A DNA stretch of 64,000 nt, taken from Candidatus Bathyarchaeia archaeon (GTDB lineage Archaea > Thermoproteota > Bathyarchaeia > Bathyarchaeales > Bathycorpusculaceae). A program made the position numbers and the translations under genes. The DNA is taken from positions 13,063 through 77,062 of the forward strand of contig JBGPBS010000001.1 of the NCBI GenBank assembly GCA_041481365.1. The letters are read 5' to 3'. Under the pieces are notes generated by a model, which saw nothing but the letters and a program-made list of their open reading frames with translations, did no database searches and was not told the DNA's origin. How positions within the stretch are numbered: the first letter of the stretch is position 1; every line of letters starts with the position of its first letter. This document shows positions 23,225 to 47,610 of this stretch, piece after piece.

Positions 23225-23749
23225 TCACATTTCGAAGTCTAAGCTTGCCTGCCTTCTGGGCAATACTTTAAGCAGGTCATGGATAATTTTCCTCACCGCT
23301 ACGCCAACCTCGCGTGAGAGTCCTTCTCCAAAATCAGTCTCCTTAGGCTCAACTAGGACTAGGCCTATCTTGGCTTTCCCCATTTTCATAATGTACTCGC
23401 AGAATATTCTCATCGGAAGTGTATGCGTTGAGAACGCGGGAGAATCCTGCAGCTGTGTGGAATCAAGGAGTCTTGGTTCTCCAGGTTTCAACCCCAAGAT
23501 TGCAGCGTCTATCAGTAGAACGTGAGTAGGATCAAAATCCAGTATTTGTTGGGTGAAGCTTTCCGGAACAGTCTCACACTCAATTAGCAATACGTTCTCG
23601 GAGACTTTCCCATGCAGGCCCTGGATTACTTTGACCCCAAGAAAGTCATCTGATCGGATGGGGTTTCCGATCCCGGCGACTACGACCTTCTCGGCGTCTG
23701 AAAGCCACTCTTTCAGATCTTCATAAATGCCATGTTTCATGACAGCCAC
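23225..23749 (-). CDS. [NiFe] hydrogenase maturation endopeptidase
   Basis: VVVAGIGNPIRSDDFLGVKV (GxGNxxxxDDxxG). Lies directly downstream of the large-subunit gene. Confidence 0.85.
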   Translation of the reverse strand: MAVMKHGIYEDLKEWLSDAEKVVVAGIGNPIRSDDFLGVKVIQGLHGKVSENVLLIECETVPESFTQQILDFDPTHVLLIDAAILGLKPGEPRLLDSTQLQDSPAFSTHTLPMRIFCEYIMKMGKAKIGLVLVEPKETDFGEGLSREVGVAVRKIIHDLLKVLPRRQASLDFEM

Positions 23750-23799
23750 CTAGCGCCGCATCAGAAAAAGCAAAAATAGGGAGAGTGGTGAGAGGAAGT

Positions 23800-25254
23800 T
23801 TACCGTTGGATTGTTTTGATCAGCTGCCTCTTGCTGTCGAATATGTTTACTGTGAGGGGCATCTGTCCGACTGCATAGTGTGTGGCACATCCGAAGCAAG
23901 GGTCGTAGGCTCTGAAGGCCATTTCAACCATGTTGAGCACGCCTTGGTCCACTCTGCCACCGTGGATCACGCCTTTGGCCGCATCGCGGATTGACATGCA
24001 GATCGCGGGATAATTGTTAGTCGTTGCCACTATCAGGTTGACGTCTTTCACGAGCGCGTCCTTGTCTAGCACGTAGTGGTGGAACAATGTTCCTCTAGCA
24101 GCTTCGACGACTCCTACGCCTTCGCTGGGGTCGCCTGGCTTGTTCCTCACGTTTGTGCTCGTTATCTCTGGGTCCCTGCTGAGCTCAAGCCCCTTTTCCG
24201 CAGCGTACAGCAGCTCGATCAGTCGTGCCCAGTGGAAAGCCAACGTGCCATGCACAGGTTTGCCGCCAAGGGTCTTGTACATCTGTTCATACTCTGCTTG
24301 GGCAAGCGGCGTGGTCATGCCGTCTGAAGCGTTGAGCCTTGCAAGTGGGCCAACGCGATAGACTCCGCTGTCCATCCCGTAGACTTGGCCTTTCCATCCG
24401 ACCTTCTTCAGGTACGGGAACTTTGCATAGGTCCATTCTTCCACGTGTTCGCCGACGTAGTTCAGATAGTCCTTGGGTTCAAACTTCAGGAACTCCTTGC
24501 CGTTAGGGTCGACGACTCTGATTTGGCCATCGTAGAAGTTTACCTTGTTGTTCTCGTCAACCAAGCCCATGTAATACGTCTTCATCGTATAGGCTTCGCT
24601 CTTGATCATGTCCACATATTTGCTATTGCCCAAAACGATGCTGTGGAACAGCTTCAACGTGAGCTTCGCAAACTCCACCGAAGAGGCGGTCATCCTCTCG
24701 ATTTCCTTCCTATTATCTTCGCTCAGCGCCTTGGATATTCCCCCAGGCAGCCCACATACTGGATGCGTTGCTTTTCCGCCCAGAATCTCCGTTATCTTCT
24801 GCCCATATGCCCTGTGCTTGATGACTTCTTTGGCGACGTCCATGCCTGCTTTTTCGATGACACCGAGGATGTTTCTTTTCTGAGGCGGCGCATCTGGCCC
24901 GACTATGAAGTCTGGACCGCCGAGAAAGTAGAAGTGCAGAATGTGATCGTAGATGATGTATCCTGCATACATGAGTTCTCTGAGCTTCTTTGCAGCTGAT
25001 GGCGGTTCAACGCTGAAGGCCGCGTCCAACGCTTTTACTGCTGCGAAATGGTGTGCCACTGGGCAGACGCCGCATATTCTCGTGGTCAGTATGGGCATCA
25101 GTTCAGCTCTGCGTCCAATGCAGAACTTTTCGAAGCCCCTGAGTTCCGGAATCTTCAGATACGCATTTTCAACTTCGCCCGCGTCGTTCAAGAATATTGA
25201 AATGTTCCCGTGGCCTTCAAGCCTGCTAATCGGGTCTATGATTACTTCTTTCAT
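23800..25254 (-). CDS. mvhA: F420-non-reducing (Mvh-type) [NiFe] hydrogenase large subunit
   Basis: N-terminal RLEGHG and RICGVCPVAH. C-terminal DPCFGCATH, followed by a 25-aa extension of the kind removed by the maturation protease. Confidence 0.9.
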   Translation of the reverse strand: MKEVIIDPISRLEGHGNISIFLNDAGEVENAYLKIPELRGFEKFCIGRRAELMPILTTRICGVCPVAHHFAAVKALDAAFSVEPPSAAKKLRELMYAGYIIYDHILHFYFLGGPDFIVGPDAPPQKRNILGVIEKAGMDVAKEVIKHRAYGQKITEILGGKATHPVCGLPGGISKALSEDNRKEIERMTASSVEFAKLTLKLFHSIVLGNSKYVDMIKSEAYTMKTYYMGLVDENNKVNFYDGQIRVVDPNGKEFLKFEPKDYLNYVGEHVEEWTYAKFPYLKKVGWKGQVYGMDSGVYRVGPLARLNASDGMTTPLAQAEYEQMYKTLGGKPVHGTLAFHWARLIELLYAAEKGLELSRDPEITSTNVRNKPGDPSEGVGVVEAARGTLFHHYVLDKDALVKDVNLIVATTNNYPAICMSIRDAAKGVIHGGRVDQGVLNMVEMAFRAYDPCFGCATHYAVGQMPLTVNIFDSKRQLIKTIQR

Positions 25255-26252
25255 TCCTTCATCACCTTTCTTCTAAGAAGCGACGATGGCAAAGAGTACA
25301 TGTAGAACGTGCCCACAGGGTCTTTAATCTGGCTCATGAGCTTCTCAACATCCTCTTCAGTGTAATGATCCTGCTCAGTCTCCAAGCCTAATATCGAAGC
25401 TATAGCGCTCATCATTGCTGCACCTTGCTCCGGCGAGTTTGGGCATGGACCGCCGCATCCCGTGCATGGCATGTCAACGGTCAAGCATTGGGCGCCGCAT
25501 CCGCTTCGAGTGGCTGGCCCCATGCAGATGATTCCCTGTTCGAGCAGGCATCTTTCGGGTTCAGGAACTTTCTCGTGAACGCGGTATATCTTCGAGATTT
25601 TTTTGTTTTCCTTCTTCCTTGGACACTCGTCGCAGACGGATTTTAGGGGTGCAAGAACTGAGCCTTTTGCTGGAAGCTCGTTCTTTCTTATGGCGTCAAT
25701 GGTGTTCAATATCAGCTTGACTGGCGGTGGACAGCCTGGCAGGTAATAGTCAACTTTGACGGTTTGATCCAAAGTCTTGACCGTGTCGTAAAATTCTGGG
25801 AGCTTCAGGACTCCCTCTTTTACTACAGTCTTGGTCTGCGGGATGACTCCTTCAGCGTTTGAAACGGACTTGCTCTCAAGATAAACCTTGCTGAAGATCT
25901 CTTTGCGGTCATGAAGATTCGCTAGGCCGGGTATGCATCCTTCTTGCGCGCATGACCCGAAGGCCACGAGTGTCTTTGCCTTCTTCCTCAGAAGCTTGGC
26001 CATATGTTCTTGTTCTTCGCTCCTCACGGACCCGTTGAAAAAACATACGTCGATGTAGTTGTCAGGCATGTTTTCCACGTCCTTGTATTTGACGTCCATC
26101 GCCACGGGCCAGAACACTATGTCCGCAATGTTCACTACATCCAAGATCTTCTCGTTGATATCCAACACTGCGATCTCGCATCCACCGCAGCTTGCAGCCC
26201 AATAGAAGGCTAACTTCAGCTTCTCTTTCGGCATCTTACTTCTCTCCATCAC
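25251..26252 (-). CDS. mvhG: Mvh-type [NiFe] hydrogenase small subunit
   Basis: AASCGGCEIAVLD, GSCAQEGCIPG and C-terminal Cys clusters. ATGA-type overlap with mvhA. Start ambiguous (GTG 26252, ATG 26249 or ATG 26234). Confidence 0.88.
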   Translation of the reverse strand: MMERSKMPKEKLKLAFYWAASCGGCEIAVLDINEKILDVVNIADIVFWPVAMDVKYKDVENMPDNYIDVCFFNGSVRSEEQEHMAKLLRKKAKTLVAFGSCAQEGCIPGLANLHDRKEIFSKVYLESKSVSNAEGVIPQTKTVVKEGVLKLPEFYDTVKTLDQTVKVDYYLPGCPPPVKLILNTIDAIRKNELPAKGSVLAPLKSVCDECPRKKENKKISKIYRVHEKVPEPERCLLEQGIICMGPATRSGCGAQCLTVDMPCTGCGGPCPNSPEQGAAMMSAIASILGLETEQDHYTEEDVEKLMSQIKDPVGTFYMYSLPSSLLRRKVMKE

Positions 26253-27150
26253 AAACTTTGCCCAGCATTTTTGAAACGTCCACCCTGAGCTCGTTAAACG
26301 CCAACTCTCCAGGCTTCATGCCCATTGCCAAACCGAGTAGCTGTGGATAATGCAATATTGGAATGCCGTAAACCTCGTTAAACATCTTCTCAATTCGCAG
26401 CTCATTCGTGTCATACATTATGTGACAGAACGGGCAAATCGTAATCATGGCCTCTGCATCAACCGTTTTGAGGTGACTAAGCTTGTCCCTGGCAAGCTGC
26501 AGGGCAACCTTGTCGCTCACACCTACGCTCGGGGCGCCACAGCATTCAGTCTCATCCATGTAGTCTAAGCATGTCGCACCAGTGGCTTCAATCAGCGTCT
26601 TAAGTGTCTTAGGATCCTCAGGATCGTCAAATCCGATGAATTCTTTGGGCCTCAGAATGTGGCATCCATTGTGTTCAGCAACTTTGAGCATAGTAAGCGG
26701 CTTGGACACCGAGTTCTTGATCCTCTTCAACCCGACATCCTCGATCAACACTTGCATAAAATGCTTCGCATCAGAAGTTCCCTTAAACTCCAAACCGGCA
26801 TCCTTCAAGTGGCCGTTTATGTCATCACGCAAATCCTTGTCTTCCTTGAGCATCTTGTTGACTTTCTTCAAAGTTCCCGCGCAACCAGGACACAAGGTGA
26901 CAATCTTTAGGCCTTCACGTTCGGCCAAGGCCAAGTTTCTAGCAGCAAGTATGAGCATCATTTCATGACTAACCGGATCCAACGGCAGACCGCAGCAGTT
27001 GAATTCGCGCATCTCCTGCAGCTCCACGCCTAACCTGCCCAAGACCTTACGTGCCGAAATCTCAAAGGCGCTAACACGGTAAGGAATCGCACAGCCTAGA
27101 AAGATGAGATACTTTGAATCCGCCAATTCACTCACCCTTCTTTCCCACAT
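26236..27150 (-). CDS. hdrB: Heterodisulfide reductase subunit B (two CCG domains)
   Basis: FNCCGLPLD and TECCGAPS CCG motifs; 304 aa. Confidence 0.9.
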   Translation of the reverse strand: MWERRVSELADSKYLIFLGCAIPYRVSAFEISARKVLGRLGVELQEMREFNCCGLPLDPVSHEMMLILAARNLALAEREGLKIVTLCPGCAGTLKKVNKMLKEDKDLRDDINGHLKDAGLEFKGTSDAKHFMQVLIEDVGLKRIKNSVSKPLTMLKVAEHNGCHILRPKEFIGFDDPEDPKTLKTLIEATGATCLDYMDETECCGAPSVGVSDKVALQLARDKLSHLKTVDAEAMITICPFCHIMYDTNELRIEKMFNEVYGIPILHYPQLLGLAMGMKPGELAFNELRVDVSKMLGKVCDGEK

Positions 27151-27652
27151 ATTTCATAAAGTGCACGTTCAGAAGCGTCTTGCCTATGCTGTCTGGGTTT
27201 CCCTTCGGCAGCGGAGGCAACCCTAACTGTTCCCTCTTTCTCATTCTCAACTCTGGAATCTTGTACGCGTATCCTGACTCAAGAATGCTTGACGCCTGCT
27301 CCTTGAAGACCTGTGGCACGCAGCCCTGCTCTGCAGCCAAGTTTCTCAAGACACGTATGACACTTGCTACCTCAACGTCTTGTGGGCAGCGATCCGTACA
27401 TGTGAAACATGCCGCGCAGAGCCACAGTGTGTCGCTCTTCAACACTCTGTCTTTGAGGCCGAGCTGAGCCATGCGAATAATCTGTCTGGGCCTGTAGGTG
27501 TCGCTGAACCTTGCAACAGGACAGTCAGACGTGCAAGTCCCACACTGGAAGCAGCGCATCAGCTTCTCGCCGCCGCGCATCTTTGAAATATCATATTTGA
27601 ACTTCGGATCCATCTCCGAAGCCTTGATCATTTTCTTCTCCGACTGTTCCAT
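27128..27652 (-). CDS. hdrC: Heterodisulfide reductase subunit C (2x[4Fe-4S])
   Basis: CFQCGTCTSDCP and CAACFTCTDRCP. Confidence 0.9.
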   Translation of the reverse strand: MEQSEKKMIKASEMDPKFKYDISKMRGGEKLMRCFQCGTCTSDCPVARFSDTYRPRQIIRMAQLGLKDRVLKSDTLWLCAACFTCTDRCPQDVEVASVIRVLRNLAAEQGCVPQVFKEQASSILESGYAYKIPELRMRKREQLGLPPLPKGNPDSIGKTLLNVHFMKYVGKKGE

Positions 27653-28089
27653 TAGGCTTCAACCTCCTTGCCTCCAAGCGGGTTCGGCCCGAGCTTCTTT
27701 ATGTCATCAACCATGTCGCGCACCACCGCGGCAAACTTGTCCCCTTCACTCGCCGAAATCCACTCCAACCGCAAACGTTCAGGCTCTATCCCGAAATCCT
27801 TCAAAACTTCCCTCAACAACGTAATCCTCCGCAACGCCTTGAAGTTCCCACTAATGTAATGGCAGTCCGAAGGCAAGTGACAACCAGCAACAAGCACGCC
27901 GTCCGCGCCATCCTTGAAAGCCTCAAGGATAAAGGCCGGATCGATTCTGCCGCTGCACATGACACGGATGATCCTAATGTTCGGAGGATATTGTATTCTG
28001 CTGACGCCGGCCAAGTCTGCACCAGCATAGCTACACCAGTTACATAAGAAACCGATGATCTTCGGCTCAAACCCATTCTTTTCACTCAT
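27652..28089 (-). CDS. mvhD: Methyl-viologen-reducing hydrogenase delta subunit
   Basis: IGFLCNWCSYAGADLAGVSRIQYPPNIRIIRVMCSGRIDP. TAATG overlap with hdrC and ATGA overlap with hdrA. Confidence 0.9.
   Translation of the reverse strand: MSEKNGFEPKIIGFLCNWCSYAGADLAGVSRIQYPPNIRIIRVMCSGRIDPAFILEAFKDGADGVLVAGCHLPSDCHYISGNFKALRRITLLREVLKDFGIEPERLRLEWISASEGDKFAAVVRDMVDDIKKLGPNPLGGKEVEA
27986..28072. repeat. 87-nt segment perfectly identical to 31792-31878 (5-prime coding region of mvhD copy 1)
   Basis: Base-by-base comparison of both loci. Identity begins at GGATATTGTATTCTG and ends at CGGCTCAAAC. The flanks diverge immediately. Confidence 0.9.
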
Positions 28090-31000
28090 GCTGTAGCCTC
28101 CGTTAATGCGGCTTCAACCTGGGCAAGTATCTCCTGCGTCGTAAAGTGTCCCATCGTGATAGCCTTCGTCGGGCATGCTGTGCCACAGGCGCCGCAGCCC
28201 TTGCACAAGGCCTCAATCACGTGTGCGATCGGCTTACCCTCTTTCTCTTTCAATTCGACTGCACCGTAAGGACACAGATATTCACAGATTCTGCAACCGC
28301 TACATAAATCTTCAGATACGTTTGCTACGATTCCTTCCATCTCGAGCTTGTCTTTCGAGAGAATCGTCGTCGCCCTTGCAGCGGCCGCACAAGCCTGCGA
28401 TATGCTCTCGTCAATGTACTTTGGCGAATGCGCCATTCCGCAGAGAAAAACGCCTTCTGTCGCAAAGTCCACGGGCCTAAGCTTCATGTGTGCCTCCAAG
28501 AAGGAACCTTCTTTGGTCAAAGGCACTTTGAGCATTCCAGCCAAGTGCTTGTTGTCAGGGTTTGGAATAGTTGCCGCACTCAAGACGACGGTGTCCGGCT
28601 CAACCTCAACCTCTTGACCTAGAACAGGCTCCCAGAAGATCACCGCCAGCCTTCCTTCCTCGTTCAAGACTTGCGGTTTCCTCTCATCATCATAGTTTAT
28701 GAACAGGACCCCTTTCATGGCGGCTTCTCGGTAATAATCCTCCTTGAAACCATAGGCACGCATATCCTTGTACAAGACGTAGACTTCAGTCTCTGGGCTT
28801 ACTTCTTTGATCTTCAACGCGTTCTTTATCGCTTGGCCACAGCAGATTCTCGCGCAGTTCGGTCTTTCCTCGTTCCTCGCGCCGACGCATTGTATCATGA
28901 GAACACTTTTGGCCTTGAAAGCGCCTTTCGAGAGTTTCTCTTCAAGCTCATGCTGAGTCACTATTCTCTGATCTGTGCCATAGAGGTATTCCTTAGGCGT
29001 GTACTCGGTAGCGCCTGTAGCTACTATGACTATGCCATGCTCGATTTCCTTCTCTTTGCCGTCGTGCTGCTTGATCTTCGTCTTGAAGTTGCCTACAAAA
29101 CCGTAGATATCGGTGACCTCTGCACTAGTGTAGACGTGTATCTTGCTGTTGCCCATAACTTCCTCAGCTAGAGCATCAAGCTTCTCCTTCGGGTTTGTGT
29201 TCTCCCCCAGCAGATAGTGAATCGTGCGGAGATGCCCGCCTAGCTCCTTTTCTCTTTCGACCAGATGAACCTCGAATCCCTGCCTCGCAAGCTCCAAAGC
29301 GGAGGTCATGCCGGACACTCCTCCGCCGATGACGAGGCCGATTGGCGTGACGTTTATCAAGGGCTTCTCCAACGGCTTCAAGAGCTTGGCCTTCGCAACT
29401 ATTGAGCGCACTAGGTCTTTGGCTTTCTTAGTGGCTGATTTCGGGTCATGCATGTGAACCCAGCTGCACTGATCTCGAATGTTCGTCATCTCGAACAGGT
29501 ACGGGTTCAACCCTGCTTCCTGCACCGTCTCCTTAAACAGGGGCTCATGCGTACGAGGAGTGCACGAAGCTACGATCACGCGGTTAAGGTTGTTCTGCTT
29601 TATCTTCTCCGCTATGAGTTTTTGAGTGTCCTGAGAACAGGTGTAAACGTTCGCCTCAGCATAGGCCACGTTGGGCAGGGTCCGGGCATACCGCACTACT
29701 TCCGGAACGTTGACCACGCCGCCGATGTTTATGCCGCAGTGACAGACGAACACGCCTATGCGCGGCTCTTCCTTGCTGACATCCCGTACGGGCGGGTACT
29801 CCTTCTTCTTAACCAGTTTTCCTCTTTCGCTCGCAACGATGCCCATGGCCTTTGACGCTGCCCCGCTTGCCTGAGCAACGCTCTCAGGGATATCCTTCGG
29901 CGCGGAGAAGGCCCCGCAGACGAATATGCCAAGCTTCGAAGTCTCAACCGGCGAGAACGTCTCCGTGTCACAGAACCTGTACTTGTTAAGTTTTATGCCC
30001 AAGTTCTTGGCAAGCTTCTCAGCGTCCTTTGGAGCCGTCATTCCAATCGACAGGACAACCATGTCGAACTCTTCTTCTTTGGGCGTCTCGTTCTCAACGT
30101 AATGAACGAACAGGTTCCCCGTTTTCGGATCTTCGGTCACTCCTGCGACTCTCGATCTCACAAAACGGATGCCCCACTCTCCTTGGGCACGCTCATAGTA
30201 TGAGTCAAATTCCTTCCCGTAAGAACGCATGTCCATGTAGAAAATGGTGGGGTCTAACTTCGAAGGCGTGTGCTCCTTAGCTATCACTGCCTCTTTCATG
30301 CCGTACATGCAGCATGCAGCTGAGCAATAATTGTTCCCAAGCTGATAGTCACGTGAACCAACACAGAAGACAAAAGCGATCTTCTTGGGAATCTCACCGT
30401 CCGACGGCCTTAGAACAAGTCCGCCATACGGTCCAGAAGCGCTCAGGATACGTTCAAACTCGATACTCGTCACAACGTTCGGATATCGACCGTAACCGTA
30501 CTCGCTCTTTAACCGCGCGTCGAAAGTTTCGAAGCCGAGAGCAAGAATGATCGAGCCAACTTTCAGCTTCCCTTCAGTCTCCTCTTGCTCATACTGAACG
30601 GCGTTTGCTTTGCAGATTTCAGCACATGTTCCACAACCGATGCATCTTTCACGGTCGATCATATACTTCAGCGGCACGGCTTGCGGGTACTCAACATAGA
30701 TCGCACCCCTATTGCCGAGACCCATATTGAACGTGTCGACCGCTTCGATCGGACATTTCTGTGCGCAAAGGCCGCAGCCGTTGCATTTGTCTTCGATTAT
30801 GTAACGAGGCTTCCTTCGAAGTTTTACTTCGAAGTTTCCAGCTTCACCGTTCAAGCCCGTGATTTCCGCGTTCGTCAAAATCGTGATGTTCGGATGCCTT
30901 CCCGTCGCCACGAGCTTGGGCGAAAGAATGCACATTGAACAATCGTTTGTTGGGAACGTCTTATCCAGCTGCGCCATCACGCCGCCTATGCATGGGCCCT

Positions 31001-31109
31001 GTTCGACCAGGTAGACCTTGAACCCAGAATCAGCTAAGTCAAGAGACGCCTGTATCCCTGCTACTCCTCCGCCCACTACCATGACTGCTCCAACTTTGGC
31101 ATCCGCCAT
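28086..31109 (-). CDS. hdrA: Double-length fused HdrA-like flavoprotein (two tandem HdrA-type FAD modules)
   Basis: 1007 aa. Module 1: GGGVAGIQASLDLA, MAQLDKTFPTNDCSMCIL, inserted ferredoxin CNGCGLCAQKCP/CIGCGTCAEIC, CVGSRD. Module 2: VFVCHCGINIGG N-domain, GGGVSGMTSALELA, IQCVGARNE..CARICC, C-terminal CSGCRICEYLCP/CKGCGACGTACP. Confidence 0.9.
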   Translation of the reverse strand: MADAKVGAVMVVGGGVAGIQASLDLADSGFKVYLVEQGPCIGGVMAQLDKTFPTNDCSMCILSPKLVATGRHPNITILTNAEITGLNGEAGNFEVKLRRKPRYIIEDKCNGCGLCAQKCPIEAVDTFNMGLGNRGAIYVEYPQAVPLKYMIDRERCIGCGTCAEICKANAVQYEQEETEGKLKVGSIILALGFETFDARLKSEYGYGRYPNVVTSIEFERILSASGPYGGLVLRPSDGEIPKKIAFVFCVGSRDYQLGNNYCSAACCMYGMKEAVIAKEHTPSKLDPTIFYMDMRSYGKEFDSYYERAQGEWGIRFVRSRVAGVTEDPKTGNLFVHYVENETPKEEEFDMVVLSIGMTAPKDAEKLAKNLGIKLNKYRFCDTETFSPVETSKLGIFVCGAFSAPKDIPESVAQASGAASKAMGIVASERGKLVKKKEYPPVRDVSKEEPRIGVFVCHCGINIGGVVNVPEVVRYARTLPNVAYAEANVYTCSQDTQKLIAEKIKQNNLNRVIVASCTPRTHEPLFKETVQEAGLNPYLFEMTNIRDQCSWVHMHDPKSATKKAKDLVRSIVAKAKLLKPLEKPLINVTPIGLVIGGGVSGMTSALELARQGFEVHLVEREKELGGHLRTIHYLLGENTNPKEKLDALAEEVMGNSKIHVYTSAEVTDIYGFVGNFKTKIKQHDGKEKEIEHGIVIVATGATEYTPKEYLYGTDQRIVTQHELEEKLSKGAFKAKSVLMIQCVGARNEERPNCARICCGQAIKNALKIKEVSPETEVYVLYKDMRAYGFKEDYYREAAMKGVLFINYDDERKPQVLNEEGRLAVIFWEPVLGQEVEVEPDTVVLSAATIPNPDNKHLAGMLKVPLTKEGSFLEAHMKLRPVDFATEGVFLCGMAHSPKYIDESISQACAAAARATTILSKDKLEMEGIVANVSEDLCSGCRICEYLCPYGAVELKEKEGKPIAHVIEALCKGCGACGTACPTKAITMGHFTTQEILAQVEAALTEATA

Positions 31110-31895
31110 CTAGGCCACCTCCAAAGCTCTATAGAGCGGGGTCGTACCCTCAATATGGTCCACTGTTATCATGTTCCTTCTCCGCATGTTCACGATCTGC
31201 TTGAGAACGGCCGCTGGCTCCAAGCAAGTTGCCTCGGACAAGGCCTTGATTGAAAGAGGCTCAGTTTGTGTCAATAGATGAATCTTCTGCCGAAAGAACT
31301 CGGCTTCAACAACCTCGTCGAGCAACGAATCAAACTCTTCTTGCGAGACTTTCTCATCGTACACGTTGTTTTTCTCTGTCAACTCTCTTTCCCTTCCGAC
31401 CAGAACTCTCAGCCTGAAATCTGAAGCAGCATTCCTTGCTGCTTCAAGGTTTTCAAGAACCTTCTGATCAGGCACTTTACCTGATGCGGGTGAGGGACCA
31501 AGCTTCTTTATCTGATCTGTGAATTCGGTCACTATTTGAGCAAACCTTTGACCCTCAGACGCTGAAACCCAGTCGAGTCTCAAGCGGTCTGGTCCTAAGC
31601 CCGTTAACGCTAGCAGCTTCTTCAGCATCTTGATCTTCCTTTCCTCGTACAGGTTTCCCTCGACATAGTGGCAATCAGCAGGGTGACATCCCAGGACAAT
31701 CACGCCATCTGCTCCGCGCATGAAAACCTCTAGGGGAATAATCGGGTCGATTCTTCCACTGCACATAACCCGGACAACCCTGATGTTTGAGGGATATTGT
31801 ATTCTGCTGACGCCGGCCAAGTCTGCACCAGCATAGCTACACCAGTTACATAAGAAACCGATGATCTTCGGCTCAAACGATTTCTTCTCACTCAT
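31110..31895 (-). CDS. mvhD: MvhD-domain protein with a ~120-aa C-terminal extension
   Basis: The N-terminal 140 aa are paralogous to 27652-28089 (IIGFLCNWCSYAGADLAGVSRIQYPSNIRVVRVMCSGRIDP). The extension ends in a helix-turn-helix-like LSIKALSEATCLEPAAVLKQIVNMRRRNMITVDHIEG. Confidence 0.88.
   Translation of the reverse strand: MSEKKSFEPKIIGFLCNWCSYAGADLAGVSRIQYPSNIRVVRVMCSGRIDPIIPLEVFMRGADGVIVLGCHPADCHYVEGNLYEERKIKMLKKLLALTGLGPDRLRLDWVSASEGQRFAQIVTEFTDQIKKLGPSPASGKVPDQKVLENLEAARNAASDFRLRVLVGRERELTEKNNVYDEKVSQEEFDSLLDEVVEAEFFRQKIHLLTQTEPLSIKALSEATCLEPAAVLKQIVNMRRRNMITVDHIEGTTPLYRALEVA
31792..31878. repeat. 87-nt segment perfectly identical to 27986-28072 (5-prime coding region of mvhD copy 2)
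   Basis: See the partner repeat at 27986-28072. Confidence 0.9.
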
Positions 31896-31896
31896 T

Positions 31897-33597
31897 TCAG
31901 TCGCCTCCCAAGGCTGCAGTAGCCTCTGCTAAGACCTGCTTGTCGCTGAAATGCCTCATCGTTATGGCCTTTTCTGGACAACTTGCAGCGCAGACGCCGC
32001 ATCCTTTGCAGAGAACGTCGTTGACTCTTGCTACTCCACGCTCATCCTTTTGGATAGCATTATAAGGGCAAAGTTTGACGCAGGTTCCGCAGCCCGTGCA
32101 CAGGACTTCATCGACTACGGAGGTTATGGCTTCCGTCCGCACTCGTTTCAGAGCCATGGGGATGCCTGCCCTTGAGGCAGCAGCATATGCCTGCGCGATG
32201 CTTTCAGGAATGGTCTTCGGGCTGTGAGCCGTTCCGCAGACGAATATTCCGTCCGTCGCGAAATCAACTGGCCTAAGTTTGACGTGAGCCTCAAAGAAGA
32301 AGCCGTCAGCTCCGATTGGAACCTTAAGCACCTTTGAAAGCTCTTTTGCGTCTCCAGTTTGAACCAGCGGAGTTGACAGAACGACGAGGTCAGCGTCAAG
32401 TTCAAGATTGTCATTAACTAGAATATCGCGCACTCTTACGGTGCATTTTCCATTCGACTCAACGGCAACTTCTGGAGGATCCTCCGCATCAAACCTTATG
32501 AATTGAACAAAGCTCTCTCTGGCCTTTTGATAGCAATCTTCGAAATCCTTGCCGTACGTCTGCATGTCCCTGTAGAGTATCGACACCTCAGCGTCTGGAT
32601 ACAGCTTTTTGATTTCCAGGGCATTCTTGACCGCGGTGGCACAGCATATTCTTGAACAATAGTTACGGCCGCCTTCTTTCCCTTCTCTTGCACCGACGCA
32701 TTGGATCATGACGACGTTCTTTGGATTCTTCAGCTTGCCCTCCTTCATGAGCCGCTCAAGCTCAAACTGAGTGACAACGTTCTTGCACTCGCCGTAACAG
32801 TACATTCCGCTGGGCTCGAAGACTTCCGCCCCCGTGGCCACGATTATCGTTCCAACGTCAAGCGCCTCATCCTTCCCTTCCTGATCCAGCGTAACCTTGA
32901 AGTTTCCTATGAAACCCTCAACGTTCTTAACCGTCGATAGAATGTGCAAGGTGATGCTCGGATTTGACTTCACGGCTTGAACAAACTCCTCCACTATTTC
33001 CGATGACTGCATGTCAGTCGGATAGAGCTTACAAAGCTCATTCAGCTTGCCTCCAAGCGCTTCTTTCTTTTCAACAAGGTGAACCGAAAAACCCTGATGC
33101 GCAAGGCTGACCGCCGCACTCATTCCTGAGATGCCACCGCCTATAACAAGGGCTGATGGTTGAACTTCGATCTCCGGCTCTGTCTGAGGCTCAAGCAGAG
33201 CAGCCTTGGCGACCGCCATTCTAACAATCTCTTTGGCTTTCTCTGTTGCCTCAGCCGGCTCCTTCGCGTGGACCCAGCTGCAGTGCTCTCGGATGTTGGC
33301 CATATGGAACAGATACTTGTTCAAACCTGCCTCTTCACAGGCACCTCTGAAAAGCGGCTCGTGAGTCCTGGGTGTACAAGAGGCCACGACCACTTGAGTA
33401 AGACCGTATTTCTTAATGGCCTCTTTGATCTTGCTTAATCCTTCTGACGAACAAGTGTAAAGGTTACCTTCAGCATACGCAACGTTGGGCAACGACTTCG
33501 CGTATTTAACAACTTCTGGAACGTTAACCACAGAGCCTATGTTGACCCCACAGTGGCAGACGAAAACGCCCACCTTAGGCTGTTTGTTCTCGCTCAT
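31897..33597 (-). CDS. hdrA: HdrA-like flavoprotein, C-terminal half of a split double HdrA
   Basis: Starts MSENKQPKVGVFVCHCGVNIG at an ATG that overlaps the upstream stop (ATGA). Collinear with residues ~445-1007 of the fused HdrA. GGGISGMSAAVSLA, IQCVGAREG..YCSRICC, CTGCGTCVKLCP/CKGCGVCAASCP. The ORF track extends it to 33708. Confidence 0.88.
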   Translation of the reverse strand: MSENKQPKVGVFVCHCGVNIGSVVNVPEVVKYAKSLPNVAYAEGNLYTCSSEGLSKIKEAIKKYGLTQVVVASCTPRTHEPLFRGACEEAGLNKYLFHMANIREHCSWVHAKEPAEATEKAKEIVRMAVAKAALLEPQTEPEIEVQPSALVIGGGISGMSAAVSLAHQGFSVHLVEKKEALGGKLNELCKLYPTDMQSSEIVEEFVQAVKSNPSITLHILSTVKNVEGFIGNFKVTLDQEGKDEALDVGTIIVATGAEVFEPSGMYCYGECKNVVTQFELERLMKEGKLKNPKNVVMIQCVGAREGKEGGRNYCSRICCATAVKNALEIKKLYPDAEVSILYRDMQTYGKDFEDCYQKARESFVQFIRFDAEDPPEVAVESNGKCTVRVRDILVNDNLELDADLVVLSTPLVQTGDAKELSKVLKVPIGADGFFFEAHVKLRPVDFATDGIFVCGTAHSPKTIPESIAQAYAAASRAGIPMALKRVRTEAITSVVDEVLCTGCGTCVKLCPYNAIQKDERGVARVNDVLCKGCGVCAASCPEKAITMRHFSDKQVLAEATAALGGD

Positions 33598-34913
33598 CTC
33601 TTGGCCTCCTTTGAAAGGCAGGCTATGGTCTCCGCTGCTCTTGCGGCCGCCCCGCTTGCCTGAGCAACGCTTTCTGGAATGTCCTTTGGGCTTTGGCAGT
33701 AACCGCAAATGTATATTCCAGCGACGTTTGTGTCAACTGGAGCTGTGAGCTGATTCTTGGACTTGAAGAATCCATACTCGTCAAGCTCTACGCCGGTCGC
33801 CTCGGCGATTTTCTTGTTGTCTACTTTTGGAATCAACGCTGGGCACAACACAACCATGTCAGCATCAAGCTTCTTCATGTTACAGCCTGCCTTGATGTCC
33901 TCATAATAGATTTGAAGACTCCTCGTTTTTGGATCTTCAGCGATTCCCCCGGGATGTGCCTTAATGTAATTCACGCTGTACTGGCTTTTTGCCCTGTCGA
34001 CGAATTCTTGAAAGCCTTTACCGACTGCTCTCATGTCCATGTACATGATGTAGACTTCAGTGTCGGGCATATGGTCTTTTGCCAAGATTGACTCCTTAGT
34101 CGCGTAGACACAGCACACGCTTGAGCAGTAGGGCAGTTCGCCCCGTTGGCTCCTCGAACCCACGCATTGAACGAAAACCAGGCTTTTGGGCTCTTTCCCG
34201 TCAGAAGGTCTAAGAAGGTGACCATCCGTGGGTCCAGACGCGCATATCAGCCTCTCAAATTCCATCGAAGTAATCACGTTCTTGAACCGTCCATAGCCGT
34301 ACTCCTTCATCGCTGAAGTATCGAAAGCGTCGAAGCCCGTCGCAAGAATTATCGAGGAGACGTTCAACACCTTTTCCTTCGGCTTTTGTTCATAATCTAT
34401 AGCAGCTGAGGGGCAGATTTTCTGGCATACTTTGCAGACGCCCTTCGTGAAGTATAGGCAGGTGTTTGGATCAATGGTGGCCACAAGGGGCACTGCCTGC
34501 TTGAAGGGCATGTATATGGCTTTTCTGTTTCCCAACCCCATGTCGAACTCATTTGGTGCCTTGACGGGACATTTCTCCATGCAGGTGCCACAGCCAGTGC
34601 ATTTGTCAGCGGTCACGTACCTTGGTTTCTGTAAGACTTTGACCTTGAAGTCACCCTTATCACCGCGAACCTCCTTTACCTCTGAGTAAGTCAACATCGT
34701 AATGTTCGGATGTCTGAAGCATTCAATCATCTTCGGCGCCAGTATGCAGATTGAACAGTCAAGCGTTGGGAAAGTCTTGTCGAGCTGTGCCATCCGACCG
34801 CCTATGCTGGGTGTCTTTTCGACGAGGTAGACTTTGGTTCCGCGGTTAGCCAAGTCGAGGGACGCTTGTATTCCAGCTATGCCTCCGCCGATTATCAGAA
34901 CCGAGTTTGACAT
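33594..34913 (-). CDS. hdrA: HdrA-like flavoprotein, N-terminal half of a split double HdrA
   Basis: 439 aa, collinear with residues 1-~440 of the fused HdrA. GGGIAGIQASLDLA, MAQLDKTFPTLDCSICIL, inserted ferredoxin CTGCGTCMEKCP, CVGSRSQ..YCSSVCC, PKDIPESVAQASGAA. Confidence 0.88.
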   Translation of the reverse strand: MSNSVLIIGGGIAGIQASLDLANRGTKVYLVEKTPSIGGRMAQLDKTFPTLDCSICILAPKMIECFRHPNITMLTYSEVKEVRGDKGDFKVKVLQKPRYVTADKCTGCGTCMEKCPVKAPNEFDMGLGNRKAIYMPFKQAVPLVATIDPNTCLYFTKGVCKVCQKICPSAAIDYEQKPKEKVLNVSSIILATGFDAFDTSAMKEYGYGRFKNVITSMEFERLICASGPTDGHLLRPSDGKEPKSLVFVQCVGSRSQRGELPYCSSVCCVYATKESILAKDHMPDTEVYIMYMDMRAVGKGFQEFVDRAKSQYSVNYIKAHPGGIAEDPKTRSLQIYYEDIKAGCNMKKLDADMVVLCPALIPKVDNKKIAEATGVELDEYGFFKSKNQLTAPVDTNVAGIYICGYCQSPKDIPESVAQASGAAARAAETIACLSKEAKR

Positions 34914-35051
34914 AGGTTGCGCTCCCTTCCGGTTTCTGGAGTGAATGAGTGAATTGATGAAGGTAAATAATCTTTACGTCTGAGGGAACTGTTTTTGATG
35001 ATGTGTGGGCTGATCATTCGATCTTTGAGCATGAATAGGATTATCCCCCAG

Positions 35052-35067
35052 TATGACACGTGTCATA
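35052..35067. promoter_or_regulatory. Perfect 16-bp palindrome TATGACACGTGTCATA upstream of the hdr/mvh operon
   Basis: Self-complementary as read. About 140 nt upstream of the hdrA start at 34913. Half-sites and spacing match the tandem sites at 54275-54310. Confidence 0.6.
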
Positions 35068-35140
35068 TTGAGCCAAACACTCACTATACCTAATAAGGTT
35101 TCCCATGTGCAAGCAGAAATATCGACGAGCTAATCCGCTA

Positions 35141-37942
35141 CTAGCCCACGAGCGCTTCAGTCTTCTTCGATTCAACGACTTGCTCTTTAGGAGGTTCTGC
35201 TTGAACCTGAGGCCCTTCAATTTTCCTTGGTTCGGGACATTTCAACATTTCCTCCTCTTTCAGGTTGAGACCTCCTTTGGCCGTACCATCTTCCATGTAC
35301 GTAACGGTGAAACCCATCTTTTTCATGAGGTTTATTGCCCTGTAATTATCCGGCAACATGATAGCAAAGAGGCCTTCAATTTTCATGTCCTTGCAGATTT
35401 CAATCGCATAGTCCACCAGTTTCGTTCCCAAGCCTAGGCCTTGCCATGGATCTGCGACGATGAAGGCAATTTCGCCAGTTTTGCCATCAGGTTCAAGACT
35501 CACCCTGACAACGCCCAGTATTCTTCGCCGTTCGTTTTCGGTCATTTCGGCAACGATGGCAATTTCCCGGTCATAATCGATATTGCAGTATCGAACTCTC
35601 GTCTCATGCGGCGTATCCTTGATTATCTGGAAAAACCTGTAGCGAATCGATTCTTCCGAGAAACTCTGGAACATTTCCAGCCAAAGATGTTCATCCTCAG
35701 GCTTGATAGGCCTCAACATCACGTGGCGTCCATCCCTGAGCTTCCACGCGGTTTCATACTTCTTCGGATAAGGAGTAATGACCAGATGCTGATGAGGCCC
35801 AAGCTTCTCAAACACTTTGTTCTTGTCCACGACGATGCGTGCGTCGAAAGCAAATGCCTCAGTGTCATTTATGAAAAGAGGGTTGATGTCAACCTCTTTC
35901 AGCTGTGGAAAATCGATAAGCATCTGGCTAAAATGCACCATAATCTCCTCAAGCAGCTTAATGTTTGCAGCTGGAACGTTTCTGTACCCCTTTAGGAGCT
36001 GATAGACCTTCGTTTCCTCCATGATTCTTCTAACTAGGGTCTGATTCAACGGAGGCAACCCAAGCGAAAAATCTTTGAACAGCTCGACGCCTATGCCTCC
36101 CATGCCGAAAAGAATGACTGGCCCAAACAGCGGATCCGTTTTTGCTCCGATTATCACCTCATAGCCATGCTTCTTGATCATCCGCTGCATGGTTACGCCT
36201 AGGATTTCAGCGTCAGGTCTATACTGCTTGGCGCGCTGAATGATCCTCTCATAAGCCTCGCGGAGTTCAGTTTCATTGTTTATGTCAAGTACTACTCCGC
36301 CCGCATCAGTCTTGTGAACTATCTGAGGAGAGAGAATCTTCATGACAACGGGATAACCCATATCTTTTGCGAAGGCAATAGCTTGCTCCACATTCTGAGC
36401 GACTTTTGTCTTCACCACAGGAAAATTGTAGAACTCGAGGAAAGTCTTTGCCTCAGCCTCATTGAGTATTTCACGATTCTCCTTCGCCATATCCCTCATC
36501 ATGACCATCAGCGGCCGCTTCGGAGGAGCCACATCCACAGGGAGCTCTTCAGGCGTCTCATACAGCAGTTCAAGGTTGCTCTTGTACTGGTACATGTACA
36601 TGTACGTTTTAACGGCCTGCTCAGGCGTCGAATAAGTTGGAATGTTGTTCTGATTGAAAACACGATTAGCCTCTTCTACGGTTCCGTAGCCCATAAAACT
36701 AGTCAGAATAGTCTTGTTCTGATAGGTCCGACTCTTGCAAAGCTCAGCGATGGTTCGGGCAATTTCAACGGGTTCGCCCACGGCCTGAGCCGTATAGATG
36801 ATGAGGATACCGTCAATGTTCTCGTCGTTCAAACAAGCTTCAACAGTCGCCTTGTACCTGTCTGCTTTTGCATCTCCTAGAATGTCAATAGGGTTGCCTC
36901 TGCTCCAGTAGTGAGGCAGAAAGCTGTTTAGCGTTTCCATGGTTTTGGGACTCAGCCTAGCCATTTTCCCTCCCCTGCCTATGATTGCATCTGTGGCCAT
37001 CACACCAGGTCCGCCGGCATTCGTGATTATGGCTAAGTTTGGCCCTCGCGGAAGCGGCTGCGTGCCCAGAACCTCCGCACAGTTGAAGAGATCCGCGATT
37101 TCATCCACACGTACGATGCCAGCACGTCTGAACGCTTTGTCGTAGATTATATCTTCGCCAGTAAGCGAACCAGTGTGTGAAGCAGCAGCTTTGGCGCTTT
37201 CGCCGAACTTGCCAGCTTTTACGACGATTATAGGCTTGGATCTAGCGAAATGTCTCGCGGCGCTCATGAACTTGCGGGCATCCGTTAACCCTTCAACGTA
37301 CATTAAGATGCTCTTGGTCTTCGGGTCTGTTCCAAAATAATCAATCAGGTCTCCGAAATCAACGTCTATCATCGAGCCTATCGAGACGAAATTGCTGAAA
37401 CCAATGTTCTCATGCATCGCCCAGTCCAGTATAGCAGAACCGAGTGCACCGCTTTGGCTGATAAAAGCTACGTTGCCGGATTTGGGCATTCGGTTTATGA
37501 ACGTTGCGTTCAAACCAATGCTGGGACGAACGATGCCTAGGCAGTTCGGTCCTATTATTCGCAGGCCATATTTGCTCTTCACCTCAAGAATTCGCTCTTC
37601 GAGGATCTTGCCTTCAGGACCTATCTCCTTGAAACCCGCGCTTATTATGATCAAGCCCATTATTCCAGCTTTTCCACACTGTTCCACTATGTCTGGAACG
37701 GTTCTTGCAGGCGTGGCAATCACCGCCAAGTCGACAGGTTCACGAATCTGCTCCACCGAAGAATAGGCTTTGTAACCCATGATTTCGGTCTTACGAATGT
37801 TGACCGGATAGACGTCCCCTTGAAACTTGAGCTCGATGAGGTTCTTCATCAAAGCATAGCCGACTGTTCCATCTTCATCGCTTGCGCCGACCACTGCTAT
37901 GCTCTTGGGGTTGAAAATCTTGTTCAGATTCAGAGTAACCAA
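35141..37942 (-). CDS. ADP-forming acetyl-CoA synthetase (alpha+beta fused) with a C-terminal GNAT acetyltransferase domain (Pat-like architecture)
   Basis: 933 aa. CoA-binding N-terminus IAVVGASDEDGTVGY, phosphohistidine loop AAASHTGSLTG, ATP-grasp region. GNAT loop DPWQGLGLGTKLVDYAIE near the C-terminus. Confidence 0.88.
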   Translation of the reverse strand: MVTLNLNKIFNPKSIAVVGASDEDGTVGYALMKNLIELKFQGDVYPVNIRKTEIMGYKAYSSVEQIREPVDLAVIATPARTVPDIVEQCGKAGIMGLIIISAGFKEIGPEGKILEERILEVKSKYGLRIIGPNCLGIVRPSIGLNATFINRMPKSGNVAFISQSGALGSAILDWAMHENIGFSNFVSIGSMIDVDFGDLIDYFGTDPKTKSILMYVEGLTDARKFMSAARHFARSKPIIVVKAGKFGESAKAAASHTGSLTGEDIIYDKAFRRAGIVRVDEIADLFNCAEVLGTQPLPRGPNLAIITNAGGPGVMATDAIIGRGGKMARLSPKTMETLNSFLPHYWSRGNPIDILGDAKADRYKATVEACLNDENIDGILIIYTAQAVGEPVEIARTIAELCKSRTYQNKTILTSFMGYGTVEEANRVFNQNNIPTYSTPEQAVKTYMYMYQYKSNLELLYETPEELPVDVAPPKRPLMVMMRDMAKENREILNEAEAKTFLEFYNFPVVKTKVAQNVEQAIAFAKDMGYPVVMKILSPQIVHKTDAGGVVLDINNETELREAYERIIQRAKQYRPDAEILGVTMQRMIKKHGYEVIIGAKTDPLFGPVILFGMGGIGVELFKDFSLGLPPLNQTLVRRIMEETKVYQLLKGYRNVPAANIKLLEEIMVHFSQMLIDFPQLKEVDINPLFINDTEAFAFDARIVVDKNKVFEKLGPHQHLVITPYPKKYETAWKLRDGRHVMLRPIKPEDEHLWLEMFQSFSEESIRYRFFQIIKDTPHETRVRYCNIDYDREIAIVAEMTENERRRILGVVRVSLEPDGKTGEIAFIVADPWQGLGLGTKLVDYAIEICKDMKIEGLFAIMLPDNYRAINLMKKMGFTVTYMEDGTAKGGLNLKEEEMLKCPEPRKIEGPQVQAEPPKEQVVESKKTEALVG

Positions 37943-46998: not shown

Positions 46999-47610
46999 AT
47001 GGAACAAAGCAAGCTCTACGTTTTGCCTCAACTGCCGTACGGATACAAAGATCTCGAACCCCACATTTCTGAGCAGCAGTTGCAGATACATCATCAAAAA
47101 CACCATCAGGCATATGTCAACGGAGCAAACAACATATTTCAGAAACTCGACAAGGCTCGGAAAGAGAATTCAGATCTTGATATTAAGTCAATCTTGAAGG
47201 AATTGTCATTCAACATAGGCGGTCATCTGCTCCACACACTGTTCTGGACAAACATGGCCTTGGCAAGCAAGAGTGGAAAGCCCGGAGGCGTTTTGGCTGA
47301 TGCTTTGACTAAGGAATTTGGAAGCTTTGACAGGTTCAAGAAGGAATTCACTCAAGCTGCGGTGAGTGCTGAAGGCTCTGGATGGGCGGCTTTGACTTGG
47401 GACAAGCAGTCGAACAGGCCGATCATAATGCAGATAGAGAAACACAACACTAACGTTTACCCCACCTTCAGAATTCTGATGATCCTCGACGTATTCGAGC
47501 ATGCGTACTACATTGACTATAAGAATGACAGGGCCAAGTTCGTGGAAGCATTCTGGAACATCGTTAACTGGAACGAAGTAGGTAAGAGACTCCAAGAAGC
47601 ACAGAAGTAG
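46999..47610 (+). CDS. sod: Fe/Mn superoxide dismutase
   Basis: [40 protein letters not shown]. Confidence 0.93.

Follow-up and report, generated by a model that had tools for sequence, protein, structure and literature searches.

The window analysed here is a 64,000-nt stretch of contig JBGPBS010000001.1 (positions 13,063 to 77,062; assembly GCA_041481365.1) from an uncultured soil archaeon, a Candidatus Bathyarchaeia archaeon of the Bathycorpusculaceae. At positions 23225-34913 of its minus strand it carries an operon that encodes a Mvh-type [NiFe] hydrogenase, HdrBC and two paralogous modules, each made up of a double HdrA and an MvhD. Reading the open reading frames (ORFs) and their junctions directly from the sequence, we find ten co-directional, translationally coupled genes, which are joined by ATGA (4-nt) overlaps, by gaps of 0-1 nt and by overlaps of 23 and 17 nt, with a single 50-nt gap before the protease gene. 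Searches against Pfam and NCBIfam assign three HdrA-like flavoproteins, two FlpD/MvhD proteins, the longer of which we call MvhD-long, as well as HdrC, HdrB, MvhG, MvhA and a HycI-type maturation protease. A first-pass annotation made from the letters alone had described the same ORFs, coordinates, junctions and gene content; its count of eleven genes was one too high, its own list likewise holding ten. In the translations, the MvhA motifs RICGVCPVAH and DPCFGCATH are intact and accompanied by a C-terminal tail for proteolytic maturation, and the two CCG motifs for the noncubane clusters of HdrB are intact as well. HdrA, HdrB and HdrC all score under the NCBIfam cut-offs for the coenzyme B-coenzyme M (CoB-CoM) equivalogs (423-1041 bits against cut-offs of 1100-1400 in the case of HdrA), and the window ORFs that were scanned include no mcr, mtr or CoM/CoB genes. 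This is in line with the earlier remark that methanogenesis genes are missing from the window, as well as with its decision to leave the physiological acceptor open.

When searched with phmmer against the PDB, the fused HdrA aligns with the solved HdrA (5odc_A) in three pieces. Hereby, residues 9-375 correspond to HdrA 146-513, i.e. the flavin adenine dinucleotide (FAD)/thioredoxin-reductase (TrxR) domain with its inserted ferredoxin domain, residues 447-598 to HdrA 2-153, the N-terminal iron-sulfur (FeS) domain, and residues 865-1002 to HdrA 513-650, the end of the TrxR domain together with the C-terminal ferredoxin domain; residues 598-865 constitute a second, more divergent FAD domain. Aligned with an HdrA reference rebuilt from this phmmer output, the four HdrA units of the window fall into two types, alpha and beta. 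Alpha units start at the FAD GxGxxG motif, have neither N- nor C-terminal domains and retain DCSxC (Cys194/Cys197), the eight cysteines of the inserted ferredoxin domain, the TrxR-cluster cysteines, Glu356 and Lys409. Beta units comprise the N-terminal FeS, FAD and C-terminal ferredoxin domains and are devoid of Cys194/197 and of the inserted ferredoxin domain. This division holds in all loci gathered: C194/C197 and all eight inserted-ferredoxin cysteines are present, and the N-terminal domain absent, in 111 of 111 alpha units, and the N-domain cysteines and all eight cysteines of the C-terminal ferredoxin domain are found in 103 of 103 beta units, never together with C194/C197. Common to both types are the TrxR-cluster cysteines, which are always kept, Lys409 (111/111 and 103/103) and, less strictly, Glu356 (104/111 alpha and 95/103 beta units).

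Each double HdrA is a complementary alpha/beta pair of the known "type II/tandem HdrA" design, and each module is a pseudo-heterodimer, the counterpart of the methanogen HdrA homodimer, with one input arm (beta), one low-potential exit (the inserted ferredoxin domain of alpha), two FAD sites and two TrxR-domain clusters. The first two genes, which had been read as the N- and C-terminal parts of one HdrA ("hdrA-N" and "hdrA-C"), thus encode two unlike units that complement each other and possess one FAD domain apiece. In module 1 the pair is split (alpha1 + beta1), in module 2 it is fused (alpha2-beta2). A pairwise alignment, which the first-pass annotation had proposed, reveals collinearity: within the fused HdrA, residues 19-426 share 49% identity with alpha1 and residues 447-1002 share 50% with beta1, and the plain MvhD is 67% identical to the MvhD domain of MvhD-long. 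The two modules are old paralogues, far from a recent or artefactual duplication.

To place the operon in its lineage, we scanned one genome per species and retrieved 65 loci with relatives of the fused HdrA. Nearly all of them are Bathyarchaeia, the top relative being 94% identical and located on a 1.37-Mb contig of a peat metagenome-assembled genome (MAG); one locus lies on a closed 2.17-Mb chromosome and others on contigs of 1.4-2.0 Mb. A few belong to Thermoplasmata/Methanomassiliicoccales (53-63% identity), and canonical 658-aa HdrAs of Thermodesulfobacteriota reach 47%. A core consisting of MvhD-long, fused HdrA, MvhD, HdrC, HdrB, MvhG, MvhA and the protease is conserved in about 50 species representatives, the part from HdrC to the protease being counted wherever the contig reaches that far. 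Mapping of the window proteins on the loci shows that the gene ahead of MvhD-long takes three forms: a split alpha + beta pair (form I; 14 species plus the window), a second fused HdrA that is 68-73% identical to the downstream one (form II; 11 Bathyarchaeia, plus GltD-containing versions in Thermoplasmata; 11-14 loci), or a 570-600-aa GltD/NfnB-like NAD(P)H flavoprotein recognised by Pfam Fer4_20 and Pyr_redox_2 (form III; about 26 species). The proteins of all three forms terminate in an HdrA-type C-terminal 2x[4Fe-4S] domain. The reading of a small match, present upstream of MvhD-long in many loci, as a remnant ferredoxin was rejected, as it represents this C-terminal domain of the GltD/NfnB-like flavoprotein. 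The tandem layout with two HdrA modules recurs in about 25 species-level genomes, including the closed chromosome and megabase contigs. Because three upstream forms exist across species, the duplication is not an artefact of assembly, and the socket can be occupied interchangeably by several kinds of unit, of which module 1 is one rather than a fixed partner, its place being taken in other lineages by a fused HdrA duplicate or a GltD/NfnB-like flavoprotein.

Neighbour-joining trees of the alpha and beta units, rooted with the solved HdrA and calculated without bootstrap, group the split module of the window with a split module that stands in a separate, divergently transcribed operon of form-II genomes and is accompanied there by a separate hdrCB and by a short MvhD of 152 aa. 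The position-1 fused HdrA of form II is a duplicate of the downstream fused HdrA and not orthologous to the split module of the window. These placements suggest that position 1 was filled independently, and that one and the same split-module clade uses a short MvhD where it stands alone and a long MvhD ahead of a fused HdrA. In four loci (L003, L009, L010 and L045, by the labels of this analysis) the separate operon lies at about 1000-6000 (-), upstream of and divergent from the main operon, and consists of hdrC, hdrB, alpha (434-436 aa), beta (596-599 aa) and short mvhD; this third module is orthologous to the split module of the window, so that three double-HdrA modules are found within 17 kb. 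At L036 a second hdrC-hdrB-mvhG-mvhA set, 73-84% identical to that of the window, occupies 1278-5188 (-), divergent and directly upstream of the split module; this locus thus has one HdrBC/MvhAG set per HdrA module. In Thermoplasmata a four-gene unit of module, MvhD-long, fused HdrA and MvhD persists without adjacent hdrBC/mvhAG.

The second peculiarity of the operon is MvhD-long itself. Its AlphaFold2 (AF2) model, calculated from a 31-sequence alignment, reaches a pLDDT of 89.6 and a pTM of 0.88. According to Foldseek, residues 1-135 superpose on solved MvhDs with TM-scores of 0.89-0.93, 52-53% identity and an rmsd of 1.5 Å (0.89 and 53% for 5odh_D). Residues 136-261 are modelled as three to four helices followed by a winged helix and contain no cluster ligands. 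The sole fold matches of this extension are weak and of the ArsR/SmtB/MarR type (SmtB/HlyU/NolR winged helix-turn-helix, wHTH; E ~0.01, TM 0.5-0.6, 15-20% identity), and the sequence and fold searches of the PDB returned neither a solved double HdrA nor an MvhD chain with such an extension. An extension-only HMMER search of 1.84 billion representative proteins yielded only 165 clusters; in the full-length members and larger fusions that were scanned or aligned, the extension always directly follows an FlpD/MvhD domain.

The position of the extension follows a simple rule. In 77 sequences, i.e. the window and loci L001-L076, the gene next to an MvhD with the extension starts with an alpha unit in 61 of 61 cases, while none of 87 plain MvhDs is followed by an alpha unit (64 precede hdrC, 20 something else or nothing). 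Ten contexts fetched independently by the extension-only search obey the same rule at extension identities of 26-41%. Among these contexts, the order beta-MvhD-extension-alpha occurs as a natural fusion in P0235 (1737 aa) and also in P0263, and L070 encodes an HdrA unit with C-terminal ferredoxin domain, MvhD and extension in one chain, then a 1007-aa fused HdrA and then a further extended MvhD. The longest array seen, L076 (GCA_044240385.1, 459-12889), reads hdrC, hdrB, alpha-beta-MvhD-extension (1355 aa), alpha-beta (1003 aa), MvhD-extension (296 aa) and alpha-beta (998 aa) and hence contains three double-HdrA modules consecutively. The two parts of MvhD-long diverge differently. In both groups, i.e. 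with either upstream partner, the fused HdrA is 82-85% identical to that of the window; the MvhD domain is 86-88% identical if the upstream partner is an HdrA and 46% if it is GltD-like, while the winged helix holds 65-70% identity under either partner. For GltD-like partners alone the values are 65% for the winged helix and 82-83% for the fused HdrA. This pattern suggests that the MvhD domain co-varies with the upstream partner and the extension with the conserved core. We therefore propose, from these comparative data, that the extension may be the domain by which MvhD-long docks on the alpha half of the HdrA that follows.

Taken together, the locus is an operon conserved within its Bathyarchaeial lineage that encodes a soluble [NiFe] hydrogenase of the Mvh type, HdrBC and two HdrA flavin modules, and we consider it moderately probable that MvhD-long chains these modules into one assembly. 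Hereby, the plain 145-aa MvhD would connect MvhAG to the arm of beta2, as in methanogens, the mobile input arm of a beta unit consisting of its N-terminal FeS domain, its C-terminal ferredoxin domain and the bound MvhD. Electrons from H2 would be split at module 2, those of the high-potential branch going to HdrBC and from there to a disulfide; the low-potential branch would leave through the inserted ferredoxin domain of alpha2, the putative low-potential exit that lies in the alpha unit alongside FAD and Cys197, and would then be passed to, or exchanged with, module 1. The [2Fe-2S] domain of MvhD-long would be seated on the C-terminal ferredoxin domain of the upstream-encoded beta1 and its winged helix would dock on alpha2, in a manner resembling BamF of class II benzoyl-CoA reductase (see below), such that module 1 is chained to module 2 and adds a second flavin, a second ferredoxin exit and further docking sites for HdrBC. 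In sister lineages the same socket would take an NAD(P)H-binding GltD/NfnB-like module. GltD domains are either inserted in the inserted ferredoxin domain of the alpha unit (type III HdrA; L054, P0235) or delivered via a C-terminal ferredoxin-MvhD-extension chain, and these two placements suggest that the socket lies at the low-potential exit of alpha2. At L054 (1208-9004, Thermoplasmata/Methanomassiliicoccales), a GltD/NfnB-like domain of about 490 aa sits within the inserted ferredoxin domain of the alpha unit of the position-1 fused HdrA; the mechanical ORF of 2598 aa probably overstates its true start. In L053 (3202-9185) and L058 (7551-13675) of the same group the position-1 gene appears interrupted, with a 290-303-aa N-terminal piece 1.8 kb from the rest.

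Several other explanations have to be weighed against a single coupled assembly. Tandem paralogues are a classic site of misassembly, and the duplication could be a collapsed or chimeric product of the assembly or binning of one HdrA-MvhD module. However, the modules differ in architecture (split vs fused HdrA, long vs short MvhD), diverge to the identities given above and occur in the same order in the roughly 25 genomes mentioned, so that we regard this explanation as ruled out. Rather unlikely in our view, if clearly more serious, is that the operon encodes two physically separate bifurcating heads, each assembled with copies of the same HdrBC and MvhAG, which would be isoenzymes that differ in kinetics, partners or acceptors. 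It is true that neither module lacks any cofactor or an MvhD, that MvhD-long retains the MvhD fold along with the cysteine ligands required for hydrogenase docking, and that both the separate operon of the module 1 clade, with its own hdrCB and short mvhD, and the second hdrCB-mvhGA set beside module 1 at L036 would suit such heads. Separate heads leave unexplained, however, why the extension occurs exactly when an alpha unit follows, why the same clade has a short MvhD when apart from the fused HdrA, why the extension is conserved despite the upstream swap to a GltD-like protein and why natural fusions and three-module arrays exist; the persistence of the four-gene unit of Thermoplasmata without its hdrBC/mvhAG neighbours speaks against them as well. 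Between the two options that the first-pass annotation had left side by side, namely alternative heads and one large assembly, the comparative evidence favours the latter. Some points nevertheless weigh against it. The window has one hdrCB and one mvhGA set, and the second set of L036 also fits two parallel complexes; most of the 61 rule-abiding cases come from orthologous loci, for which the fused HdrA served as query, and are hence not independent, leaving about ten that are; and the trees carry no bootstrap values. Gene order and fusions, moreover, speak for association rather than for a particular surface to which the extension binds, and in the beta-MvhD-extension-alpha fusions the alpha unit could pair with that very beta unit, in which case the extension would stabilise a split pair rather than form a bridge. 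Finally, an ArsR-like winged-helix fold could bind DNA.

QmoABC of sulfate reducers comprises a membrane-bound QmoC (HdrC-like plus haem b) and a QmoB with a fused C-terminal MvhD-like domain, and is linked to aprAB/sat. Module 1 shares its logic of a small HdrA-like flavoprotein (QmoA, resembling alpha) and a larger flavo-FeS protein (QmoB, resembling beta plus MvhD), and a "type II QmoAB" closer to HdrA has been reported in organisms with and without Dsr/Apr (PMC10504309). The architectural parallel drawn by the first-pass annotation is thus real, whereas membership fails: MvhD has a gene of its own, apart from that of the beta unit, the operon encodes HdrB, HdrC and a hydrogenase but no QmoC, and the 174-aa soluble HdrC reaches 85.9 bits with the qmoC model NF038018 (cut-off 300), covering only model positions 4-108 of 360. 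Beyond this weak match no QmoA or QmoB match was obtained for the window proteins in NCBIfam, the top family matches are HdrA/HdrA2, the downstream junctions amount to 0-1 nt, and apr/sat/dsr and flx genes are absent among the window ORFs scanned. That module 1 is a Qmo- or Flx-type complex for sulfate/APS reduction or NADH oxidation, placed here by chance or co-regulation, therefore appears most improbable. Hardly better is the prospect that MvhD-long acts as a redox-sensing transcription factor or moonlighting subunit, its [2Fe-2S] cluster sensing and its winged helix binding DNA for regulation of the operon; we consider this very unlikely. The top non-MvhD Foldseek matches are indeed repressors of the ArsR/SmtB/MarR type, weak Pfam HTH_5/HTH_20 matches occur in family members and some of these are named "predicted transcriptional regulator" by JGI. 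On the other hand, these fold matches are of low significance, junctions of 1 nt and 0 nt couple the gene translationally to its neighbours in the operon, the extension occurs fused between MvhD and HdrA units within enzymes of 800-1700 aa, and the wHTH of BamF is a protein-protein interface in the solved class II benzoyl-CoA reductase (bioRxiv 10.64898/2026.04.10.717634).

A bolder version of the coupled assembly, which we put forward only tentatively and hold to be doubtful, would see two (window) or three (L076) pseudo-dimers wired serially into HdrA "trains" by their MvhD-winged-helix adaptors, with cascaded flavin-based electron bifurcation in which each module would pass its low-potential output to the input arm of its successor. 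If so, H2, or NAD(P)H in sister lineages, could drive reductions below the ferredoxin potential or serve several acceptors simultaneously, and a second, HdrA-HdrA version of Bam-type coupling would occur widely among Bathyarchaeia and Thermoplasmata that are abundant, uncultured and non-methanogenic.

The features of the operon are compiled in Table 1. The ATG of beta1 overlaps the stop codon of alpha1 as ATGA, the mechanical ORF being 603 aa long from a TTG, and the ATG at 23740 is the likely start of the protease gene. Since the host is archaeal, the spacers were judged by direct reading instead of with a sigma-70 promoter/terminator model. Two T5 runs (23763-23778, -) lie in the 50 nt that separate mvhA from the protease gene and may represent an archaeal oligo-T termination or attenuation signal, so that the protease gene may be partly uncoupled from the operon. 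Putative signals of the upstream spacer are an A/T-rich "aaagattatttacc" box and a GGAAGGGAG ribosome-binding-like motif ahead of the ATG. Scans of the window for tRNAs and Rfam families gave no matches.

Table 1. Features of the Hdr/Mvh operon and its upstream spacer, in order of transcription (window coordinates).
Feature	Position	Strand	Basis
Upstream spacer, 227 nt, likely promoter region	34914..35140	-	read directly
alpha1, HdrA-like alpha unit, 439 aa: FAD/TrxR domain, DCSxC (Cys194/Cys197), inserted 2x[4Fe-4S] ferredoxin domain, TrxR-domain cluster Cys, Lys409	33594..34913	-	Pfam; alignment to HdrA 5ODC; ligand conservation in 111 alpha units
beta1, HdrA-like beta unit, 566 aa from ATG at 33597: N-terminal FeS domain, FAD/TrxR domain without Cys194/197 and without inserted ferredoxin domain, C-terminal 2x[4Fe-4S] ferredoxin domain	31897..33597	-	Pfam; alignment
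MvhD-long, whole gene, 261 aa	31110-31895	-	ORF
MvhD-long residues 1-135, MvhD/FlpD domain, [2Fe-2S] adaptor fold	31491..31895	-	Pfam FlpD 9.6e-52
MvhD-long residues 136-261, helical linker + ArsR/SmtB-like winged helix	31113..31490	-	AF2 secondary structure; weak Foldseek matches
Fused HdrA, whole gene, 1007 aa	28086-31109	-	ORF
alpha2, fused HdrA residues 1-440	29790..31109	-	phmmer to 5odc_A, residues 9-375 vs HdrA 146-513, 436 bits
beta2, fused HdrA residues 441-1007 plus stop	28086..29789	-	N-terminal FeS, second FAD, C-terminal ferredoxin domains
MvhD, 145 aa, canonical length, without extension	27652..28089	-	Pfam FlpD 2.4e-56; NCBIfam VhuD 148 bits
HdrC, 174 aa, 2x[4Fe-4S], soluble	27128..27652	-	Pfam Fer4_8/17; TIGR03290 133.8 bits, cut-off 160
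HdrB, 304 aa, two CCG domains	26236..27150	-	Pfam CCG x2, 6e-30; TIGR03288 283.9 bits, cut-off 345
MvhG-type [NiFe] hydrogenase small subunit, 333 aa	25251..26252	-	Pfam Oxidored_q6; NCBIfam top match VhuG, 214 bits
MvhA-type (group 3c-like) [NiFe] hydrogenase large subunit, 484 aa	23800..25254	-	Pfam NiFeSe_Hases; NCBIfam top match VhuA, 448 bits
HycI-type hydrogenase maturation protease, 174 aa	23225..23749	-	Pfam HycI; TIGR00072 95.5 bits, over cut-off

Directly upstream, the operon adjoins a gene (35141-37942, -) for a 933-aa ADP-forming acyl-CoA synthetase (CoA-binding, Succ_CoA_lig, ATP-grasp_5) fused to a C-terminal GNAT acetyltransferase, a Pat-like arrangement that is found in the same place in many form I/III relatives (e.g. 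L001, L005, L014, L022). Further genes of thiol and redox-stress metabolism form a loose group nearby, namely a double thioredoxin/glutaredoxin-like protein (38779-39423, -), an Fe/Mn superoxide dismutase (46999-47610, +), a fusion of the ferredoxin:thioredoxin reductase catalytic subunit with a rubredoxin-like domain (48636-49184, +) and an FMN reductase (50153-50719, +). It is conceivable that a thioredoxin-type protein disulfide is the substrate of HdrBC, though nothing links these genes to the operon. Among the relatives, many form-III genomes possess a second, more canonical cluster 5 kb upstream (L018, L020, L030, L038, L057, L061 and L062, at about 100-5500) with mvhA, a gene of "type Ia" for an HdrA-MvhD fusion of 803-806 aa, and hdrC and hdrB, at about 40-45% identity to the window proteins. 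Contigs that are 75-93% identical to the Bathyarchaeial operon are filed under bacterial MAGs in three cases (L002, L033 and L059; Candidatus Acidoferrum, Krumholzibacteriaceae and Acidiferrales), which probably reflects binning errors rather than lateral transfer. At L064 (1-13575) the operon is broken into many short ORFs with frameshifts throughout, for which uncorrected long-read indel errors are more likely the cause than a degraded pseudogene array.

The role and the high-potential acceptor of soluble Hdr/Mvh systems in non-methanogenic archaea are a long-standing question, which bears on whether Bathyarchaeia can use H2 to generate low-potential ferredoxin for CO2 fixation or acetogenesis. 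To this question the locus contributes a concrete object, i.e. a conserved core with an exchangeable socket for a second HdrA or an NAD(P)H module, along with a sequence rule, namely that the extension announces an alpha unit in the next gene, by which chained modules can be predicted. Should the modules be physically chained, the principle of coupled bifurcation would extend from one bacterial enzyme to the broad archaeal and bacterial Hdr family. In the literature that could be searched, we found no description of a two-module operon in Bathyarchaeia, of the MvhD-wHTH family or of its syntax rule.

Compared with MvhAGD-HdrABC of methanogens (PDB 5ODC), the operon has the same group 3c-type MvhA/MvhG with CxxC motifs, maturation protease, MvhD [2Fe-2S] adaptor, HdrB and HdrC, and the same FAD/TrxR domains with Lys409, Glu356 and all cluster ligands. 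In contrast, complementary alpha and beta units, present twice, replace the one homodimeric four-domain HdrA of about 650 aa, and there are two MvhDs, one of them extended by a winged-helix region of 126 aa. The input modules of methanogen super-assemblies attach via the N- and C-terminal regions of HdrA and VhuD, and two different ones can be bound at once (PMC13518236). Bathyarchaeial genomes with MvhADG and HdrABC have been reported before, the disulfide being unknown (PMC7886697). FlxABCD-HdrABC, in which FlxA-C, the subunits of an NAD(P)H dehydrogenase, and an MvhD-like FlxD are encoded beside hdrABC, and the type III (GltD-inserted) HdrA systems share with the sister lineages the use of an MvhD-like adaptor that couples a non-hydrogenase donor to HdrA; the window operon itself has neither an NAD(P)H-binding module nor FlxA-C homologues, GltD-like modules being confined to the sister lineages.

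The first-pass annotation correctly set the operon apart from systems with a single HdrA of about 650 aa, yet the double-HdrA design as such has already been described (PMC9012536; PMC12054007; bioRxiv 10.64898/2026.04.10.717634). Tandem or fused HdrAs with complementary loss of the N-domain and of Cys197 are known from ANME archaea and from Moorella MetFV-HdrABC-MvhD and were proposed to form heterodimers (PMC9012536). A survey from 2025 named the fusion "type II HdrA" (A6 + A12), pointed out that Lys409/Glu356 are retained at both flavin sites and stated that biochemical work is lacking (PMC12054007). The complementarity and the two TrxR domains with Lys409/Glu356 are the same in the window, where the 439-aa unit, which has neither an N-terminal FeS nor a C-terminal ferredoxin domain, matches class A6 and the fused 1007-aa protein type II (PMC12054007). 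The systems treated in both papers (PMC9012536; PMC12054007), however, are single modules, mostly with FdhB/molybdopterin-like partners, from methane- and alkane-metabolising archaea; serial modules, the MvhD-wHTH adaptor with its rule, an exchangeable upstream module and the link to MvhAG in non-methanogenic Bathyarchaeia were not found in them.

The closest precedent for chaining by MvhD-long, judged by analogy, is the BamE/BamF module. In the cryo-EM structure of class II benzoyl-CoA reductase described in a 2026 preprint, BamE is a fused HdrA dimer and BamF an MvhD adaptor that exceeds the usual length by more than 100 aa and docks the BamGHI module on BamE through its wHTH; the enzyme is presented there as the first complex in which two bifurcation modules are coupled (bioRxiv 10.64898/2026.04.10.717634). 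With BamDEF(GHI) the window operon shares a fused HdrA with two TrxR/FAD domains and an elongated MvhD adaptor with a wHTH, the two wHTHs being compared by description only; if the modules are indeed chained, the idea of a soluble supercomplex in which two flavin-based modules are coupled would be common to both as well. It differs in that both modules are of the HdrA type, that the input is a [NiFe] hydrogenase and that the BamB/C tungsten enzyme and BamGHI are missing. Moreover, both FAD sites keep the bifurcation-type Lys, whereas the second FAD site of BamE has Gln, and MvhD-long consists of one Rossmann-like domain, a helical linker and the wHTH instead of two Rossmann domains, with Cys rather than Sec. 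The components of the operon are thus of known kinds; to judge from the sequence comparisons, what would be new is how they are arranged, with HdrA modules in a chain, a connector of the MvhD-wHTH type and a socket whose occupant can be exchanged, all of this alongside Mvh in Bathyarchaeia that are not methanogens.

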